From: a bacterium
GTDB lineage: Bacteria; UBA8248; JACPRG01; G963555815
Assembly (NCBI GenBank): GCA_965261595.1
Contig: CBDHDG010000007.1
Span: forward strand, 608,001 to 672,000
Direction: 5' to 3'
DNA length: 64,000 nucleotides
Under the pieces are notes generated by a model. It searched no databases, was not told the origin of the DNA, and worked only from the letters and a program-made list of their open reading frames with translations. Numbering within the stretch: position 1 is the stretch's first letter; the number at the start of each line of letters is the position of its first letter. This document shows, one piece after another, positions 10,558 through 19,042 of the stretch. Made by a program: the position numbers and the translations under genes.

Positions 10558-11451
10558 ATGCTGAGCGCGGAAACACTTCGGGGCGTTTATTCAGCCATCG
10601 TGACGTCCTTCCAAGGGGATGAGACGCTCGACGAGGGGGCGCTCCGCAAGCAGACAGAGTACGTCATCGAGAACGGCGTCCACGCCATCATGTCCACGGG
10701 CGGGACGGGCGAGTTCCCCCACATGACCCGGGAAGAGAGAAAAGCGGCCAATGCCGTCATCACGGACCAGGCGGCCGGCCGGATCCCGATCATCGCCGGA
10801 ACGGCGGGATGCAGCACGCGGGAAGCCGTCTTTCTGTCCCAGGACGCCCAGGATGCGGGCGCGGCGGCCGTCATCCTCACCCCGACCTACTACTTCAAGA
10901 TTCCCGAGGAGGGGCTGAAGCGGCACTTCTTCGACGTGGCCGAAGCCCTGGACATTCCGGTCGTGATTTACAACAATCCGCTTTACACGGGCAATCCCAT
11001 GTCGCCGTCTCTCATGGCGGAAATCATGGAGCACCGGAACATCATCGGCGGAAAGCTGAGTCAGGACGACATGGGGCAGCTTGTCGAGACCCTCCGGATC
11101 ACCCGCGGCCGGGTGTCCGTGAACACCGGGATCGACAGCCAGTTCTACCCGGCCCTCTGCGTAGGCTCGCGGGGGATATTCTCCACGGCCTCCTGTGTCA
11201 TCCCCCGGCAGATGGCGGACATCTACGACCACTTCCTCGCGGGCCGTCACGAAGAAGCCCGCGAGCTCCACATGAAGGTCCAGGTCCTCAACCGCTTCCT
11301 CGAGTACGACCCCGGATACGTCGCGCCCGCCAAGGAAGCGCTGGCCATGCTGGGCATCCCCTGCGGCGCCGCCCGCAAACCGTTGCCGCCCCTCACGGAC
11401 GAGCAGCGCGCGGGCGTGAAAGCCGCCCTGCAAGCGCTGGGCATGCTCTGA
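10558..11451 (+). CDS. DapA/NAL-family class I aldolase/lyase
   Basis: GGTGE, IYNNP, Schiff-base K in GGKLS, RKPL; substrate unknown. Confidence 0.85.
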   Translation: MLSAETLRGVYSAIVTSFQGDETLDEGALRKQTEYVIENGVHAIMSTGGTGEFPHMTREERKAANAVITDQAAGRIPIIAGTAGCSTREAVFLSQDAQDAGAAAVILTPTYYFKIPEEGLKRHFFDVAEALDIPVVIYNNPLYTGNPMSPSLMAEIMEHRNIIGGKLSQDDMGQLVETLRITRGRVSVNTGIDSQFYPALCVGSRGIFSTASCVIPRQMADIYDHFLAGRHEEARELHMKVQVLNRFLEYDPGYVAPAKEALAMLGIPCGAARKPLPPLTDEQRAGVKAALQALGML

Positions 11452-11505
11452 GACCCGAATCGACTCTCCCCGGTCCGAGAAGAGACCGGCGGGGGAACGC
11501 GCCCG

Positions 11506-12729
11506 GTGAGTCCTAAGCTTCCGCCGATCGATCCGGATTACACCGTCGGACTCCTGACCGATTTGGTCCGGATCAACAGCGTCAACCCGATGACCTCCCA
11601 GGGGGCCGCGGCTTCGGATGGCCCGGGACCGCCCGGAGAATCCCGGATCGCGGCCCGGTTGGCCGAGGCCATGATGGACCTCGGGGCCGAAGTCGAGATC
11701 ACGCCCGCCGATGAGGCGGGAGAGGAGGCCGACCGGCGGCCGAACGTCATGGGCCGTTGGCCGGGAGAGGGGCGGGGGGCGCGGCCCGGTCCGGAGATCG
11801 TTCTCTGCTCTCACCTGGACACCGTCGGGGTGGCGGGCATGGAGGCCCCCTTCGATCCCGCCGTCCGGGACGGTCGGGTCTTCGGCCGGGGGTCCCTCGA
11901 CGCCAAGGGCCAGTTGGTGATGTTCCTGGCCGCCCTCCACGCCGCGCGGAAGATGGAGGAGCCGCTTCCAGCGAACGTGACGATCGCCGCCGTCAGCGAC
12001 GAGGAAGACCAGAGCGTCGGGGCGCGAAGCATTTTAAAAACGCTTCAGGGGGATTTTTGCATCATCGGGGAGCCGACCGGTCTGGACCTGGTCCTGGCGC
12101 ATAAAGGCTTCTGCTGGATCGAGATCGAGACGTTCGGCAGGGCGGTCCACGGCAGCGTTCCCGAACAGGGAATAGACGCCATCGCCAAGATGGCCGAGGT
12201 CATCCGGGCCGTCGAGGGATTGAAACCGTCTTTGAGGGAGCGCGTCCATCCGCTGCTCGATCACCCCATGATCCACATGGGCGTCATCGAGGGGGGCTCG
12301 GGCGTCAGCACGGTCCCCGACCATTGCCGCCTGACCCTGGAGGTGAGGATGTGTTTGCGGGAGGAGGCCGAGGGAATTTTCGCGGAAATTCGTGATATCC
12401 TGCGTCGCCTCTCGGGGGTCGACCCGGACCTGAAGGCCGAGGCCCGGCTGGGCGTCGTCCGCCAACCCATGGAAATCGATCCGGATCATCCCCTGGTGTC
12501 GGGACTCGCCGCCGCCGTGGAGGCCGCGCTCGGCAAGCCGCCCGCCAGAAACGTCATGGGGGCGTGGACGGACGCCGGGTATTTCGCGGAGAAGATCCCC
12601 ACCGTGGTCTTCGGACCGGGCGACCTGGGCCTCGCCCACTCCAAGGAAGAATTCGTCCCCATCGAAGAGATCGTCCGGGGTGCCGCCGCCGTTCTGCGGT
12701 TATTGACTTCTCCTCCCACAATGGAATGA
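11506..12729 (+). CDS. M20 ArgE/DapE-family deacylase
   Basis: SHLDTV, GRGSLDAKG, DEE, GEPT, AHSKEE. Confidence 0.88.
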   Translation: MSPKLPPIDPDYTVGLLTDLVRINSVNPMTSQGAAASDGPGPPGESRIAARLAEAMMDLGAEVEITPADEAGEEADRRPNVMGRWPGEGRGARPGPEIVLCSHLDTVGVAGMEAPFDPAVRDGRVFGRGSLDAKGQLVMFLAALHAARKMEEPLPANVTIAAVSDEEDQSVGARSILKTLQGDFCIIGEPTGLDLVLAHKGFCWIEIETFGRAVHGSVPEQGIDAIAKMAEVIRAVEGLKPSLRERVHPLLDHPMIHMGVIEGGSGVSTVPDHCRLTLEVRMCLREEAEGIFAEIRDILRRLSGVDPDLKAEARLGVVRQPMEIDPDHPLVSGLAAAVEAALGKPPARNVMGAWTDAGYFAEKIPTVVFGPGDLGLAHSKEEFVPIEEIVRGAAAVLRLLTSPPTME

Positions 12730-12736
12730 ACCGGAA

Positions 12737-13870
12737 ATGAGCGAAACGAAAAGTCCCGTCGGCGAAATCCTGCGCAGAGGCATGGAGTCCCTTTCCCCGC
12801 TGGCGCCGATTGCCGACGCGGCGGAGGTGAAGCGAAGGTCCGGCCGGGAGGTGGCCCGCATCGGGACCAACGAGAACCCGATGGCCCCATCCCCGGCGGC
12901 CGTCGCGGCGGCCGGGCGGGCGCTCCAGGAGCCCAACCGCTATCCCGACCCGATGAGCCGAGAGCTTCGGGAGGCCATCGGAGCTCATCACGGCCTGACG
13001 GCCGGGCACGTCTTCGTGGGCAACGGGGGCGATGAGGTCATTTCGGTCTTTTCCCGCGCCCTCCTCAACGAAGAGGACGAGGTCCTCATCCCCTGGCCGG
13101 CCTTCTCGACGTATGTGGTCACCGCCCAGGTGGCGGGGGCGCAAGTGATCCTCAGTCCGCTGAAGGACCACGCCATCGACGTGGACGACGTCCTGTCCCG
13201 AATCACGGACCGGACGAAGCTCCTTTATCTCTGCAATCCCAACAACCCGACCGCGACGATGCTGGCCCCGGAGGACTTCGAGCGGATCGCCGCGGCCGTT
13301 CCCGCGCGCGCCGTCGTCATTTCCGATGAGGCCTACCGGGATTTTGTGGAGGACGAGGTCCCCTATGCCGACACCGTGGGCCGGCTCCGGAGGGGGGACG
13401 CCCCGCATCTGCTGATCGTCAAGACCTTCTCCAAGGTCTACGCGCTGGCGGGGTTGCGCGTGGGCTACCTCCTGGGCGATCCCGAGGTGATCGCCCACCT
13501 GTTCCGCGCCAAGGAGTTCTTCAACGTCAACCGGGTCGCCCAGGCGGCGGCCCAAGCGGCGCTGGAGGATGAGGAACACTATCAAAAGAGCCGCGCGTTC
13601 ATCATCGGGGAGCGCAGATACATCGAAGCCGAGATCAGAGAGCGGGGTCTTCGATACGTCCCGTCGCAGACCAATTTCATTCTGATCGAGATCGGCGGAC
13701 AGGATGAGGCCGACGCGGTGTTCGAAAGGCTCCTGGACCGGGGGATCCTGGCCCGCGCCGGAAAGGGATTCGGGGCGCCCGGAACGGTCCGTATCTCAAT
13801 CGGAACGCGCGAGGAGAACGAGCGGGTCCTGGCGGTGTTGATTGAAGGCCACACATCACGAGGGCCTTGA
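12737..13870 (+). CDS. hisC: Histidinol-phosphate aminotransferase-like PLP enzyme
   Basis: NENP, NRYPD, CNPNNPT, DEAY, KTFSKVYALAGLRVGY. Confidence 0.8.
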   Translation: MSETKSPVGEILRRGMESLSPLAPIADAAEVKRRSGREVARIGTNENPMAPSPAAVAAAGRALQEPNRYPDPMSRELREAIGAHHGLTAGHVFVGNGGDEVISVFSRALLNEEDEVLIPWPAFSTYVVTAQVAGAQVILSPLKDHAIDVDDVLSRITDRTKLLYLCNPNNPTATMLAPEDFERIAAAVPARAVVISDEAYRDFVEDEVPYADTVGRLRRGDAPHLLIVKTFSKVYALAGLRVGYLLGDPEVIAHLFRAKEFFNVNRVAQAAAQAALEDEEHYQKSRAFIIGERRYIEAEIRERGLRYVPSQTNFILIEIGGQDEADAVFERLLDRGILARAGKGFGAPGTVRISIGTREENERVLAVLIEGHTSRGP

Positions 13871-13900
13871 TGCGGGGGGGGCGCTTGCGTGCCGACCAAA

Positions 13901-14275
13901 CTGGGCGCTTGCGCGCCGGCCAAGCTGCGGATGGAGGGGTTGTGCTTATTACAATCTCCTCTGGCGCACGGTTGTCCGGTTCGTCTCAAAAGGTAAGCGC
14001 ACGAGTGCGGAAATCCAGACACCGAGTGGCCGCCCCAACGTCATTAGGCGATAGTGTGCTTTGCACACTATCGCAAAAACTGACGCTTTGGCCGGATGCT
14101 GCGGCTGCCCTAGGCAGACGGGCATCCGGCCAAAGACACAAGCCATCAAGGGCCACAGCCGACCGGTACAGCCAATCCAACACCCGCCCCGGTAAGGCTA
14201 AAGCCAGAGGCTTGGCCGCCGAAAGTTTTTCGGGGGGGTCCAGGGGGGGCGGTTTTTCAAAAAAGCCCCCCCTGG
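13901..14275 (-). repeat. 375-bp structured intergenic element, copy B (inverted)
   Basis: Reverse-complement homology to 3876-4250 at both ends; terminal hairpin tandemly duplicated at ~13879-13926. Confidence 0.85.
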
Positions 14276-14294
14276 GAGGTGGACGGGAGAAGGT

Positions 14295-15689
14295 ATGAAC
14301 GCGACACCGCCTGATCCGCTCAAAGGGTATCGGGGACGCGCCCTGGAGGCGTTGAAGTCCTTCGGCGTGCGAGTGTGGAGCGAGGTCGAAGCCGAGACCA
14401 AGCGCGGGAAGTTTCACGGGATCATCCTGCCCCGCGCCGAACAGGCCGACGATCGGCACATCGTCCTGAAGCTCCCCACCGGATACAACGTCGGCGTCTC
14501 GGCCGAAAGCCTCCTGGACCTGCGGGAGGTCGGTTACCGGGAAGCCCACTACCAGATCCCCGAGAAAGAGTTCCCGACCGACCCGTCGAAGCCCGACGTG
14601 ACGCTCCTCGGGACGGGCGGGACGATCGCCAGCCGGCTGGACTACCGGACCGGGGCCGTCATCCCGGCCTTCTCGCCGGGGGAGCTCTACGGAGCCGTTC
14701 CGGAGCTGGCCGACATCTGCAACCTCAAGACCATCAAGCTGTACGGCGTATTCAGCGAGAACATCAGGCCCGAGCACTGGATCGGGACGGCGCGCGCCAT
14801 CGAGCGGGAGATCACACACGGGGTGGACGGGATCGTCGTCGGACACGGCACCGACACGATGCACTACACGGCGGCGGCCCTGACCTTCATGGTCCAGGAC
14901 CCGCCGGTCCCCATCGTCCTGGTCGGCTCGCAGAGATCGAGCGACCGGCCGAGCTCGGACGCGGCCCTCAACCTCATTCACGCCACCCACGCCGCCGCCC
15001 GGGGAAAGATCGCGGAGGTCATGGTCTGTATGTTCGGCCCCACCAGCGACGCCTACGCCCTGCTCCACCGGGGGGTCCGGGTCCGGAAGATGCACAGCAG
15101 CTACCGCTCGACCTTCCGGACACTCGGCGACACGCCCCTGGCCAAAATCGAGCGTGACGTCCTGACGTCCATCAAGACCGACTGGCGGCCGAGGAGGGAG
15201 GACCGGAAGGTCCGCGTCGAGACCCGGTTCGAGGAGCGGGTCGCCATCCTCTACTACTACCCCAACATGCATCCCGACGTGCTCGAGGCCTTCATCGACA
15301 ATGGATACAAGGGCATCGTCATCGCCGGCACGGGGTTGGGACACGTCAATAAGCCCCTTTACCCCGCCTTGGAGAAGGCCCGGGACGCGGGAATCCCGGT
15401 GTTCATGACCGTCCAGACCCTTTGGGGATACACACAGATGTACGTCTACGACTCGGGGCGCGACATCCTGGAGCGGGGGGTGATCCCGCTCGGCAACATG
15501 CTCCCCGAAGTGGCCTACGTGAAGCTCGGCTGGGCGCTCGGCCAAACGGACGACCCGGAGGAAGTGAAACGAATCATGCTCACCCCGGTTTCGGACGAGA
15601 TCACCGACCGGGAGCCCCCCAACGGCTACGTCATCCTCCAGGGCGGCCTCCCCGAGGTGGACGAGTTCCTCGGCCGGTATTGGAAATAG
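14295..15689 (+). CDS. gatD: Glu-tRNA(Gln) amidotransferase subunit D
   Basis: GatD N-terminal domain (LKLPTGYNVGV); TGGTIASRLDYRTGAV, HGTDT, SQRSSDRPSSDA, KMHSSYR, PEVAYVKLGWALG. Confidence 0.93.
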   Translation: MNATPPDPLKGYRGRALEALKSFGVRVWSEVEAETKRGKFHGIILPRAEQADDRHIVLKLPTGYNVGVSAESLLDLREVGYREAHYQIPEKEFPTDPSKPDVTLLGTGGTIASRLDYRTGAVIPAFSPGELYGAVPELADICNLKTIKLYGVFSENIRPEHWIGTARAIEREITHGVDGIVVGHGTDTMHYTAAALTFMVQDPPVPIVLVGSQRSSDRPSSDAALNLIHATHAAARGKIAEVMVCMFGPTSDAYALLHRGVRVRKMHSSYRSTFRTLGDTPLAKIERDVLTSIKTDWRPRREDRKVRVETRFEERVAILYYYPNMHPDVLEAFIDNGYKGIVIAGTGLGHVNKPLYPALEKARDAGIPVFMTVQTLWGYTQMYVYDSGRDILERGVIPLGNMLPEVAYVKLGWALGQTDDPEEVKRIMLTPVSDEITDREPPNGYVILQGGLPEVDEFLGRYWK

Positions 15690-15882
15690 CGGCCTGCGCG
15701 CTGACTCGTCTCGACGATTGTGTTAGTAAAAAGCGGATTTCAATGGAAAATGACTTGCTGAACCATTCGTCCGAGGGGCTGGTACGGCGCCCGGCCCCTA
15801 CATTCTGGTAGCGTAGAATCCTTCCACAGATGTAGGGGAGGGGCTCCGCACCCTCCCCCATCACTTCCGCACTGACTGTCGT

Positions 15883-17842
15883 TCAGGTGGTCGGGTCAGC
15901 CGGCCGCGCGGCCTCCCACCGTTCTTCGAGCATGGCCCGAATCTCCCGTCCCTCCCTCCGGCCCCGCACCCGCTTCATCACGAATCCCATGAGGTAAGCG
16001 ACGCGGTTCTCATCGGCGGGGTTGTGCATGGGGGCCTTCCCACGTGAGGCAATGACCTCATCGATGGTCTCCCGCATCTCCTCGTCCGTCAGGGGAGACA
16101 AACCCGCGCCGTTCAGCGCCGCGTCCACTGTCAGACCGGGAGAGCTGGCCAGCCTTTCCAGAAGGCGCGGGATCGCCTCCCGGCCGAACCGGCCGTCTCG
16201 GTAGGCCCGGAAGAGGTCCACCCATTGCTCATCGCCGCAGGTTGTCAGGTCGGCCCCGCCCCCTGCCCCTTCCCCTCTTCCCCCGGCCGCCAGGGCCTTC
16301 CAATCGTGGACCAGCGTGATCCCCGCGAGGAGAGGCGGGACGCCCGTCTCCTCCATGATCCGGTCCAACAGGTTCCCCCGCGTCGAGAAGGCGAGGGCCT
16401 CGATGACGTCCGGCGGCAGCCCCCAGGCCCGGTAGCGGGCCTCCCGCTCCCAGGGCGGCTTCGATCCGGGCGATTCGCTCTTCCTCGACGGGAATCAGCG
16501 GAAGGTCCGTATCGGGATACATCCGGTCCGGTCCGGGAAGGACCCGCTCGAAATCGGTCGTGCCGTCTTTCAGCGCCTGGCGCGTTTCCATTGGGATTCC
16601 CACGGCCGCCTCCCGGCAGCGGGTCTCGATCTCCCGGACGGCCGTTTTGACATCTTCCTCCGGCCCCCAGACGATCAGGAGGGCGTCGGCTGAATCGGCC
16701 CCCGTGACTTCGGCCGCCGCATCCCAGGCGCCGAGGCTCAGCCGCTCCGGATGGCGCGGGTCGGAGGCCTCCCGGCAGAACAGGACAGGCGGCTGGTCGA
16801 GGCAGGCGATGACCCGGACCCGTCCCGCCACGTCCCGCAGGAAGGGCACGCTCTCGCCGCCGGGACCCTCCTGAAGGGACCGGTCGAGGATGCCCGCAAA
16901 GCGCGGAACCCGAACGGCCCACACCGCCCGACCCGCCGCGCGGGCCTTTCGCAGGATGGGATGATCCAATGAGGCGGCCGGCGCCGGGGCGGCGCGGGCG
17001 GAAATGTCCTCGGCCCCGATGCCGCGGCGTTTCAGCTCCTCGCGGATCTCCAGGAGCCCCTTCTGGCGGAGGGCCTCGTTGTGGGTCAGCGGCACGAAGG
17101 CCCTTACCCGCGGGACGCCCTTGATCTCGATCCGGGGCGCTCCGTCGATGCTCACGTTCACGTCCTGGCGGACCGAGCCGATTCCCCGCCGGACCTTTCC
17201 CGTCGAGCGGAGGATTTGCCCGATGCGCCACCCCACCTCGGCCACCTCCCCGGGGGTCCGCATCTCCGGATAGGTGACCACCTCGAACAGGGGCATGCCC
17301 AGCCGGTCCGTGCGGAACGTGATCCGGTGACCCTCGTCCCTCACCTCTCGGCAGGAGTCCTCCTCGATGCTCACCTGAACCACCGGAACCGTGCGGTCCG
17401 CCAGGGGGATTTCTCCTTCCACGCCGATGATGGCGGTTCGCTGAAAGCCGGTCGGAATGCTCCCGTCCAGGTACTGTTTCCGGGTGATGTGAATTTCCCC
17501 CACGATGCTGGAGCGGAACAGCAACGCCATCTCCAGGACGATATCGATCGTCTCGGGGTCCGGCGGAAACGGGGGCGTGTCGTCCATCTCATAGGTGCAA
17601 ACCGTGTCGTTGCGGACCTGATAGACAACCTCCTTGCGGGTCTTGAACTCCATGAGGGCGGTGCCGTCGTATTCGCCCAGCTCCGACAGGGTCGGCCGCA
17701 TGTGGCGAAGGAGCTCGGCGTCGTAACGCGGCGAATACCGGCCCGCCGGGCATCGGCAGAAAAGCTTCCGATCCGTCAGGAGTTGATAATGGACTTCGAG
17801 GCCCGAGCGAAAACCCAGGGCCTGATAATCGAGCTTCCGCAC
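15883..17842 (-). pseudogene. gatE: Glu-tRNA(Gln) amidotransferase subunit E, frameshifted near 16455
   Basis: GLEVHYQL..KLFCRCP, RPTLSELGEYD, DGSIPTGFQRT, RQDVNVSI, insertion domain, PGPDRMYPDTDLP; tail continues in the 15883-16368 frame. Confidence 0.9.
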
Positions 17843-18094
17843 CGCATCGTTCCGAATAGAGGGAAATTCGAAAGGGAGAGATGTCTCGTTACGCGCCGAT
17901 TCTAATCCATCCCGGCGCCCGGCTCAAACCCGGGCTTCGGCGGCCGGGCCGGGTTTTCACCCCGCGGCGAACCGCGTGACTCCGGGGACATTCACGATTA
18001 TATTGAAGGTTTCGCAACACGTCCCGGACCGTCCGCGCACCAAGAGCCGCGGCGGTCGCCCAATCAGCTCCAATCCATTGGCAAGGGGAGAAAC

Positions 18095-19042
18095 ATGCAG
18101 CTTCTGACCTACAAAACGGACGGCGGGGAGAAAGTGGGTCTTCATGTTCAGGGAACGGTGTATGACATTCAGGCTTGTCTGGAGGAGGCGGGGGCGGACC
18201 TGGGCGCGTCTGTTCCTGGAGCCCTTCCGGACCTGAAGGGAATGATCGGCGCGTGGGACCGGTGGGAAGGCCCGCTCCGCGCGCTGGAAGAGAAATTGGA
18301 CGACTTCCGGGATCGGATTGCCGATTCCGCCCGACAACCGGTGCATAAGATCCCTTTCCTTCCGCCGATTCCCCGGCCCGGAAAGAACCCGGTCATGCTC
18401 GGCCGCAACTATCAGGCTCACGCCGACGAGGGCGCCCGGGTCTATGGCCCGGAGATCGGCTCCTCCGTCATCGAGCACCCCATCTATTTCACCAAGGCGG
18501 CCACCAGCCTCATCGGACACCGGGAGGGCGTCATCCACCACGCCGTCACGAATGAGCTGGACTACGAGGTGGAGCTGGCCGTTGTCATGGGCCGCGGCGG
18601 GCGGGCGATTCCGCCCGAGAAGGTCTTCGACCATGTTTTCGGCTATACGGTCTGCAACGATATCTCGGCCCGGGACCTCCAGCACAGACACAACCAGTGG
18701 TTTCTCGGAAAGTCCCTGGACGCCTCCTTCCCCATCGGTCCCTGGATTGTGACGAAAGACGAGATCCCCAATCCGCATTCACTGAACGTCGCCTGCCGCG
18801 TCAACGGGGAGACCCGCCAGGACGCCAACACTTCGGATTTTATTTTCGACATCCCGACCTGCGTATCCGTCTTTTCGCAGGGCGTCTCCTTCGAGGCCGG
18901 AGACATCCTCGCGACGGGGACGCCCGAGGGTTGCGGATTCGGGCTGGACCCTCCCCGGTTTCTGAAACCCGGAGATGTCGTGGAGTGCGAAGTCGAAGGG
19001 GTGGGTTGCCTCGTGAATCCGGTGGTCGCCCCGCCCGCGTAG
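18095..19042 (+). CDS. Fumarylacetoacetate hydrolase family protein
   Basis: GRNY, DYEVEL, NDISARD, GKS, TGTPEG. Confidence 0.92.
   Translation: MQLLTYKTDGGEKVGLHVQGTVYDIQACLEEAGADLGASVPGALPDLKGMIGAWDRWEGPLRALEEKLDDFRDRIADSARQPVHKIPFLPPIPRPGKNPVMLGRNYQAHADEGARVYGPEIGSSVIEHPIYFTKAATSLIGHREGVIHHAVTNELDYEVELAVVMGRGGRAIPPEKVFDHVFGYTVCNDISARDLQHRHNQWFLGKSLDASFPIGPWIVTKDEIPNPHSLNVACRVNGETRQDANTSDFIFDIPTCVSVFSQGVSFEAGDILATGTPEGCGFGLDPPRFLKPGDVVECEVEGVGCLVNPVVAPPA

Follow-up and report, generated by a model that had tools for sequence, protein, structure and literature searches.

A bacterial GatDE locus encoding a probable accessory tRNA amidotransferase, with gatE recently broken by a 14-bp deletion in one strain

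The 64,000-nucleotide stretch analyzed here (the window; contig CBDHDG010000007.1, positions 608,001 to 672,000) belongs to a bacterial genome and carries, in convergent orientation, gatD and gatE, the genes for the two subunits of the tRNA-dependent amidotransferase GatDE. An original prediction, made from the sequence alone, had described the pair as a complete, archaeal-type enzyme. We found that gatD is intact and that gatE is split over two reading frames by a 14-bp deletion. Throughout, G000 is the genome carrying the window, other G numbers are compared genomes, L numbers are GatD loci, and X numbers are public runs. The locus comprises the following features.

14295..15689, plus strand: gatD, intact, 464 amino acids (aa); GatD N-terminal domain and asparaginase-like glutaminase domains.
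16452..17842, minus strand: 5′ part of gatE, in-frame residues 1-464; GatB/GatE catalytic cradle and inserted domain.
15883..16451, minus strand: 3′ part of gatE, in another frame (three-frame translation); helical domain and YqeY-like tail.
16451..16460, minus strand: deletion junction (16451/16452) and the single surviving copy of a 9-bp repeat (16452-16460, AGGGCGGCT on the plus strand).

Profile searches identified the first gene as gatD. Its product scored 507.2 bits against TIGR02153 and 506.2 bits against NF003217, both above the equivalog cut-offs (324 and 310 bits, respectively), and outscored its own match to the type I asparaginase subfamily model TIGR00519 (389.7 bits, under the 507 of the GatD equivalogs). 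Pfam placed GatD_N at residues 29-72, Asparaginase at 102-289, and Asparaginase_C at 315-428, while residues 11-439 aligned end to end with GatD of Methanothermobacter thermautotrophicus (2d6f_A, 438 bits) and also with that of Pyrococcus abyssi (1zq1_A, 394 bits). The motifs TGGTIAS (107), HGTDTM (184), and RKMH (264) are identical in both alignments, which points to conserved catalytic motifs, the assignment of triad residues being our own reading of them. The full GatD that had been predicted, with its N-terminal and asparaginase-like domains, was therefore borne out. AnsA was rejected as the identity of this gene by the GatD equivalog scores and the GatD_N domain; AnsA-like genes of relatives are about 31% identical to the window's GatD and form the outgroup of the tree described below, with a branch length of 2.1.

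The minus strand holds two overlapping open reading frames (ORFs), 17842-16229 (537 aa) and 16368-15883 (161 aa). The longer one follows GatE models no further than about residue 460. It scored 354.4 bits against TIGR00134 (cut-off 319.55) and 415.2 bits against NF003107, under the cut-off of 456 because the tail of gatE sits in another frame. Pfam GatB_N covers residues 14-457 of the 5′ part, which matched the archaeal structures 1zq1_C (277 bits) and 2d6f_C (273 bits); H18, E160, and E187 correspond, ungapped and with an offset of 3 (2d6f_C), to the Mg ligands His15, Glu157, and Glu184 of M. thermautotrophicus GatE. The 161-aa ORF spans positions 513-625 of the NF003107 model (51.7 bits) and matches Pfam GatB_Yqey (43.1 bits); as a passage of a review states, the YqeY-like domain of GatE binds the tRNA D-loop (PMC2330236). 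GatB was rejected as the identity of the second gene, since the 537-aa ORF reached 89.8 bits on the GatB model TIGR00133, far under the cut-off of 314.8, and the true gatB of the genome lies elsewhere. By these profile comparisons, the two genes are true gatD and gatE, neither gatB nor ansA. The GatE family, the cradle, and the insertion domain of the original prediction are thus present, but its full-length GatE is not: the gene lies on the minus strand, divided between two frames.

Three-frame translation showed that the GatE sequence switches frame right after ...EERIARIEAAL; past residue 464, 73 out-of-frame residues lead to a stop at 16229. In a DNA alignment, the window lacks 14 bp that are found between two 9-bp direct repeat copies in a same-genus genome (G001) and a same-family genome (G003). 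The N- and C-parts of gatE lie in a single frame in all six relatives examined in the window's phylum, so that GatE as one polypeptide (cradle, inserted domain, helical domain, YqeY-like tail) is broken in the window and kept in each of them. Stop-to-stop gatE frames of 658-672 aa were open in four of four relatives (G001, G003, and the further phylum members G008 and G083), and the intact GatE of G001 and of G008 scored 498 bits on NF003107.

The stretch is present in 20 public runs from 13 studies, covering seawater, marine, hydrothermal-vent, and sponge metagenomes as well as coded organisms, and contigs of four runs (X1, X2, X15, and X18) were compared with the window. The contigs of X18 (8,586 nt, depth 13) and X2 (2,803 nt, depth 9.59) are ~99.8% identical to the window and have an intact gatE; each carries 14 extra letters behind 16451, at depths of 13/13 and 9.59/9.59, and eight other letter differences. 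Run X15, with a word share of 1.00, is probably the source sample; its contig (8,572 nt, depth 4.2) agrees with the window in every letter and does not have the 14 nt (0 of 4.2). X1 had depth in only 9 of 30 bins, and its insertion count at 16451 (0 of 7.92 depth) comes from just short pieces. Because the 14 nt are missing from the X15 contig while X18 and X2 carry them, the deletion is real in the source-like sample and specific to that strain, with near-identical strains keeping gatE intact. Ratios of nonsynonymous to synonymous substitution rates (dN/dS) against G001 were 0.12 for gatD, 0.18 for the N-part of gatE, and 0.25 for the neighboring hisC. Judged by the first two values, gatD and gatE appear to have been under purifying selection until very recently.

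The genome (6.17 Mb in seven contigs, 96.7% completeness, 5.57% estimated contamination) encodes a full bacterial small-subunit (SSU) rRNA (1606.5 bits) and a tmRNA with the tag ADQELALAA, and the window sits within a contig of 1.38 Mb. In the pair of 2-kb bins with gatD and gatE, GC content is 0.644 and 0.674, compared with 0.650 and 0.625 in the adjoining bins. Both the bacterial chromosome and the high GC shared with neighboring genes, as originally described, were thereby confirmed. The inventory of amidation routes that had been proposed yielded gatA (637.8 bits) followed directly by gatB (585.2 bits; C6:403580-405010) on contig C6, and one bacterial gltX (553.5 bits). In profile searches of the genome, nothing exceeded the cut-off for glnS (best hit 65 bits, which is gltX) or for asnS (best hit 105 bits). 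The gltX gene, tRNA-Gln(CUG), and tRNA-Glu(CUC) are consecutive on one strand (G000:C3:279286-280952), which groups this candidate for a non-discriminating GluRS with both its tRNA substrates; the acceptor stem of the tRNA-Glu(CUC) is topped by a G1-U72 wobble.

We surveyed 51 genomes of the phylum (class-level and phylum-level sets were identical), with a 41-genome subset for gatB, glnS, and asnS. In that subset, 39 of the 41 genomes yielded gatB, all seven with gatD among them, and none yielded glnS or asnS. By comparison, gatD exceeded the cut-off in 7 of the 41 and in 9 of all 51 genomes, representing 7 of 15 genera and three of four families; in the largest genus, it was found in none of 23 genomes. 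Given GatB in 39/41 and GatD in 9/51 genomes, GatDE is best regarded as an accessory to GatCAB rather than its replacement. According to a review passage, GatCAB makes both Gln-tRNA and Asn-tRNA in bacteria that have neither GlnRS nor AsnRS.

Both tRNA(Gln) genes and the tRNA(Asn) gene of the host carry U1-A72, and tRNA(Glu) and tRNA(Asp) start with G1. In review passages, M. thermautotrophicus GatDE is described as recognizing A1-U72 of tRNA(Gln) plus the D-loop (PMC2330236, PMC9499178), and bacterial GatCAB as recognizing U1-A72. Comparison with the archaeal identity pair, which had been proposed as a check, thus came out negative. ARAGORN additionally called tRNAs of 89-97 nt (Glu-TTC at C5:360254, Glu-CTC at C7:131504, Lys-TTT at C4:822511, Ile-TAT at C6:63141, and Pro-CGG at C6:889829); the two long Glu calls folded with poor stems and no CCA-like end, and appear to be false. 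A tRNA-SeC lies at C6:845075.

GatD relatives are widespread outside the phylum. Among at least 593 pattern matches in species-representative genomes, at least 573 encode GatD relatives, and we compared the best 80, which are 65-74% identical to the window's GatD. By record titles, from which all lineages of outside loci were taken, two of the 80 are archaeal and the rest bacterial (Ignavibacteria, Bacteroidota, Zixibacteria, Aminicenantes, Fermentibacteria, Cloacimonadota, Myxococcota, Phycisphaerae, Calditrichota, and others). In 66 of these loci gatE precedes gatD on the same strand, one (L023) is convergent, two (both archaeal-titled) are divergent, and 11 have no gatE in the DNA examined, seven of which have under 2 kb of upstream sequence. 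The convergent arrangement is shared by the window, all six phylum relatives examined, and L023. Similar pairs in other bacteria, suspected from the outset, therefore do exist, with gatE adjoining gatD in most of the best 80.

A quick IQ-TREE phylogeny of GatD (LG+G4, SH-aLRT support only, 79 rows, with a warning of long branches from the tool) included 7 rows from the window's phylum, 40 outside loci, 29 rows from the archaeal phylum of G041, and 3 AnsA-like outgroup rows. The outside loci were the odd-numbered ones of the best 80 plus L074, minus the truncated L039; 29 of the 30 loci of G041's phylum were used, dropping G041's own duplicate L202, and two of the nine GatD copies in the window's phylum were left out. 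The archaeal status of G041 and G042 rests on record titles and on the presence of GatD in 38 of 41 genomes of G041's phylum; a search with the archaeal SSU model found rRNA in neither genome. Vhu/Mvh-type hydrogenase and HdrA-like genes, with scores under cut-offs, flank L097, and the flanks of L074 were uninformative.

The seven copies of the window's phylum form one clade (support 100), whose sister is the bacterial L023 (96). Together with eight rows of G041's phylum and the two archaeal-titled rows, all bacterial rows form a clade with support of 99 without L209 and 88 with it. At its base branch the archaeal L209, then L193, L208, L210, and L211, and one archaeal group is nested among bacteria with weak support (80-91), while 21 typical archaeal rows stand apart. 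The window's GatD is 40-46% identical to these 21 rows and 55-70% identical to the other archaeal rows. The archaeal phylum of G041 (L188-L217) accordingly has two kinds of GatD, 21 rows at 40-46% and nine loci at 55-70% identity; G050 and G072 have two gatD copies each over the cut-off, which suggests paralogy or transfer within archaea.

The tree is compatible with an ancient transfer in which bacteria acquired the gene from one archaeal subgroup and then passed it among themselves; the direction is not proven. Since the phylum's copies nest inside the bacterial radiation, their immediate source appears not to be archaeal. The old interdomain transfer of the original prediction is thus consistent with the archaeal rows basal to the bacteria-containing clade, but not as the proximate origin of this locus, and the expected grouping with archaeal GatD holds for a subset only. 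Passages of reviews call GatDE archaea-only and an "archaeal signature protein" (PMC2330236, PMC9499178). Neither this restriction nor a role as the sole Glu-tRNA(Gln) amidotransferase of its host describes the present case, given the bacterial 16S rRNA and tmRNA, the at least 573 loci with relatives, and gatA and gatB in the genome, with gatB in 39/41 genomes of the phylum. Searches of titles and abstracts found no description of bacterial GatDE and no match for GatDE with Ignavibacteria, although NCBI family models already name such genes. Within a large bacterial clade overlooked by the reviews, the window's pair is an unremarkable representative.

Taken together, we favor, with a probability of roughly 80%, a resident bacterial GatDE locus that encodes an accessory amidotransferase beside GatCAB and whose gatE was recently broken by a slippage deletion in this strain. 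The phylum's pair would have arisen inside the bacterial GatDE radiation and stayed under purifying selection afterwards. The gatD product would be the asparaginase-like, ammonia-releasing subunit and the gatE product the GatB-like kinase/amidotransferase subunit that binds mischarged tRNA, the enzyme serving as an accessory tRNA-dependent amidotransferase next to GatCAB in this lineage. Because both tRNA(Gln) genes and the tRNA(Asn) gene carry U1-A72, GatDE probably used Glu-tRNA(Gln), Asp-tRNA(Asn), or both as substrates until recently. A slippage-type deletion of 14 bp between the two 9-bp direct repeats would then have shifted the gatE frame after residue 464; as the tRNA-holding helical and YqeY-like domains would be removed, GatDE is most likely inactive in this strain, a loss that may be tolerated because GatCAB would cover its function.

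Several observations weigh against this interpretation. With U1-A72 on the host tRNA(Gln), GatDE must recognize its tRNA in a way unlike the archaeal enzyme, or act on some other substrate. No gatC was located, and the two ORFs 5′ of gatA gave no Pfam match. The deletion was seen only in the window and in a contig of depth 4.2 from the run that is probably the source sample. The patchy occurrence of the pair (9/51), combined with its strong conservation, argues for some benefit beyond plain redundancy.

The most serious alternative concerns the substrate. In archaea, GatDE makes Gln-tRNA and GatCAB makes Asn-tRNA; bacterial GatDE, the window's included, could reverse this division of labor and act mainly as an Asp-tRNA(Asn) or dual amidotransferase. 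Five outside carriers from three phyla by their titles (G093, Aminicenantes; G094, G095, and G096, Ignavibacteria; G097, Phycisphaerae) all encode glnS (in three pieces in one genome) and asnS, while gatB was found in two of the five, leaving three without it; asnB exceeded its cut-off in two of five, and asnA was found in none of the five. The class of G094 offered a larger sample of 101 genomes, 21 with and 80 without GatD, with the following counts.

GatB not found: 12 genomes in all; 6/21 with GatD, 6/80 without GatD.
AsnRS not found: 13 genomes in all; 8/21 with GatD, 5/80 without GatD.
GlnRS found: 48 genomes in all; 20/21 with GatD, 28/80 without GatD.
AsnB not found: 26 genomes in all; 7/21 with GatD, 19/80 without GatD.

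GlnRS is thus far more frequent in GatD-positive genomes, which also lack AsnRS and GatB more often. Among the 53 genomes of this class without GlnRS, 50 have GatB and one has GatD. These counts are hard to square with GatDE acting mainly as a Gln-tRNA route. In three genomes (G102, G115, and G166), GatD and GlnRS were found while GatB and AsnRS were both missing; provided that these genomes are complete, GatDE is the only route to Asn-tRNA(Asn) found in them. Another two (G094 and G165) combine GatD and AsnRS with the absence of both GatB and AsnB, asnA having been sought in G094 only. The U1-A72 pair common to tRNA(Asn) and both tRNA(Gln) of G000 also fits an enzyme that accepts either tRNA. 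Conversely, all of this is co-occurrence; because related genomes are non-independent, some are probably incomplete, and completeness figures are not given, the class counts are a lead rather than a test. The absence of AsnB does not follow GatD (7/21 and 19/80), and M. thermautotrophicus GatDE, according to a review passage, rejects Asp-tRNA(Asn). Nor can the window's phylum separate the two substrates, since neither GlnRS nor AsnRS was found in its 41 genomes. As a lead, then, co-occurrence in this class points to Asn-tRNA synthesis by bacterial GatDE and lends some support to a repurposed enzyme, an option that the original prediction had raised. We consider it a possibility short of even odds that bacterial GatDE acts mainly on Asp-tRNA(Asn) or on both substrates. 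In an equally tentative extension, the bacterial enzyme would have adapted to the U1-A72 end common to tRNA(Gln) and tRNA(Asn), would stand in for GatCAB or for AsnRS plus asparagine synthetase in GlnRS-bearing bacteria, and in the window's phylum would be a second amidotransferase, useful under some conditions, that is acquired and discarded by strains, as the recent 14-bp deletion would illustrate.

Two further observations were made in this class. The five lowest full-length GatB scores of the 101 genomes (G126, G136, G146, G156, and G176; 418-510 bits, compared with ~520-625) all belong to GatD-positive genomes, four of them without AsnRS; GatCAB may diverge or specialize alongside GatDE, or these genomes may be one clade. 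In G162, glnS (C45:508058-509644, plus strand) lies ~100 bp from a convergent gatD (509743-510945, minus strand).

An assembly or consensus artifact, with the organism's own gatE intact, would also explain the frameshift. It would agree with the intact gatE of all relatives and of two near-identical strains, and with the fact that X15, the sole run agreeing with the window, is probably the source sample and has a depth of just 4.2. However, two assemblies, the window and the independently built X15 contig, miss the same 14 nt, and the clean loss of one repeat copy together with the spacer is typical of replication slippage, unlike homopolymer miscalls. We therefore rate an artifact as improbable.

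That the two gatE frames yield a working split protein, or are joined by programmed frameshifting, is very unlikely. The second frame is indeed open from 16451 to 15883, but its earliest possible start codon, TTG at 16368, would lose the beginning of the helical domain; gatE is split in no relative examined, and the shift stems from a deletion that near-identical strains do not have. Just as implausible is the suggestion in the original prediction that GatDE replaced the bacterial Gln-tRNA route and became the host's main Glu-tRNA(Gln) amidotransferase: although an amidotransferase is required, as no GlnRS was found in the genome, gatA and gatB are there at full score, gatB outnumbers gatD by 39 to just 7 in the 41 phylum genomes, and gatE is broken in the very strain sequenced.

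The immediate surroundings of the locus bear on a last alternative and contain two further features.

17899..17927, minus strand: promoter-like site 5′ of gatE (TTGAGC, 17-nt spacer, TAGAAT), a consensus match only.
13871..14294, no strand assigned: hisC-gatD spacer with two dispersed repeat modules; context, outside the enzyme genes.

The promoter-like consensus scan returned two sites, with 0.4 expected in shuffles. In a blastn search of the spacer against its own genome, 72 pieces matched, with ~30-35 copies over 13,911-13,951 and over 14,191-14,271. The two modules, at about 13,900-13,980 and 14,070-14,290, each have ~30-35 diverged copies in the genome, and the spacer resembles intergenic repeats of the REP or MITE type; the 143-aa ORF that overlies it (13867-14298) is spurious. 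Contigs of all four runs break only in this spacer, where depth is raised and loose ends are many; from 14246 to 18500, contigs of other runs than the window's own assembly are unbroken. The least probable alternative, gatD and gatE from an archaeal contaminant or a chimeric contig, could draw on the estimated contamination of 5.57% and on these breaks directly 5′ of gatD, but it can be set aside, as can the chimera named at the outset as a way to refute the prediction: the breaks fall on a repeat with ~30 genomic copies, G001 has the same order of argE, hisC, gatD, convergent gatE, and a FAH hydrolase gene, the 8.5-kb contigs of X15 and X18 pass from gatD via gatE into the FAH gene, GatD occurs in 9/51 phylum genomes with the seven copies in the tree forming one clade, and GC is in line with that of the flanks. 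The neighbors are genes of amino-acid metabolism (10558-13870 and 18095-19042), encoding a DapA-like aldolase, an ArgE/DapE-family deacylase, a HisC-type aminotransferase (303.6 bits, over its cut-off), and a FAH-family hydrolase. Because this neighborhood is common to the same-genus genome only, it is no evidence of a functional link with gatD and gatE.

Compared with archaeal GatDE (2D6F and 1ZQ1), the bacterial proteins have the same domain order, and both subunits align end to end, the intact GatE of G001 scoring 317 and 340 bits, respectively; the window's proteins retain the Thr motifs in GatD and the His/Glu/Glu Mg ligands in GatE. Unlike the archaeal system, the window's genes reside in a bacterial host with U1-A72 rather than A1-U72 on tRNA(Gln), share the genome with gatA and gatB, and can be dispensed with here, gatE being frameshifted. 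Within the bacterial GatDE clade, the window's GatD shares 65-74% identity, the adjoining gatE, and its place in the tree, but differs in its convergent arrangement, as 66 of the best 80 outside loci have gatE and then gatD on one strand, and in a phylum with neither GlnRS nor AsnRS found, whereas the outside carriers checked have both. GatCAB uses the same chemistry and a paralogous tRNA-binding subunit, and GatE matches GatB models at 90 bits; in GatCAB, however, ammonia is released by the amidase GatA instead of an asparaginase-like protein, GatC is needed, and distribution in the window's phylum is near-universal (39/41) as opposed to patchy (9/51). In Thermus, Deinococcus, and Bdellovibrio, the GatCAB that is kept beside AsnRS and GlnRS serves asparagine biosynthesis. 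The retention itself is described in one paper (PMC4206432). In these bacteria, as in the five outside GatDE carriers, an amidotransferase persists despite both synthetases, but the enzyme is GatCAB.

In passages of the reviews, the confinement of GatDE to archaea enters arguments on the last common ancestor and on the co-evolution of GatDE and tRNA(Gln) in archaea (PMC2330236, PMC9499178). A large, well-conserved bacterial GatDE clade undercuts this archaea-only picture. The locus shows GatDE genes beside gatA and gatB in a lineage in which neither GlnRS nor AsnRS was found, and suggests that one strain could dispense with the enzyme through a single slippage event, whereas near-identical strains retain it. 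If it works at all, this GatDE must act on tRNAs with U1-A72. The co-occurrence pattern in G094's class suggests, as a hypothesis that can be tested, that Asn-tRNA is a product of bacterial GatDE; an Asp-tRNA(Asn) or dual-specificity enzyme would, if real, be the mirror image of the archaeal arrangement. As a single locus the window's pair is ordinary; the question of interest is the wider role of GatDE in bacteria.

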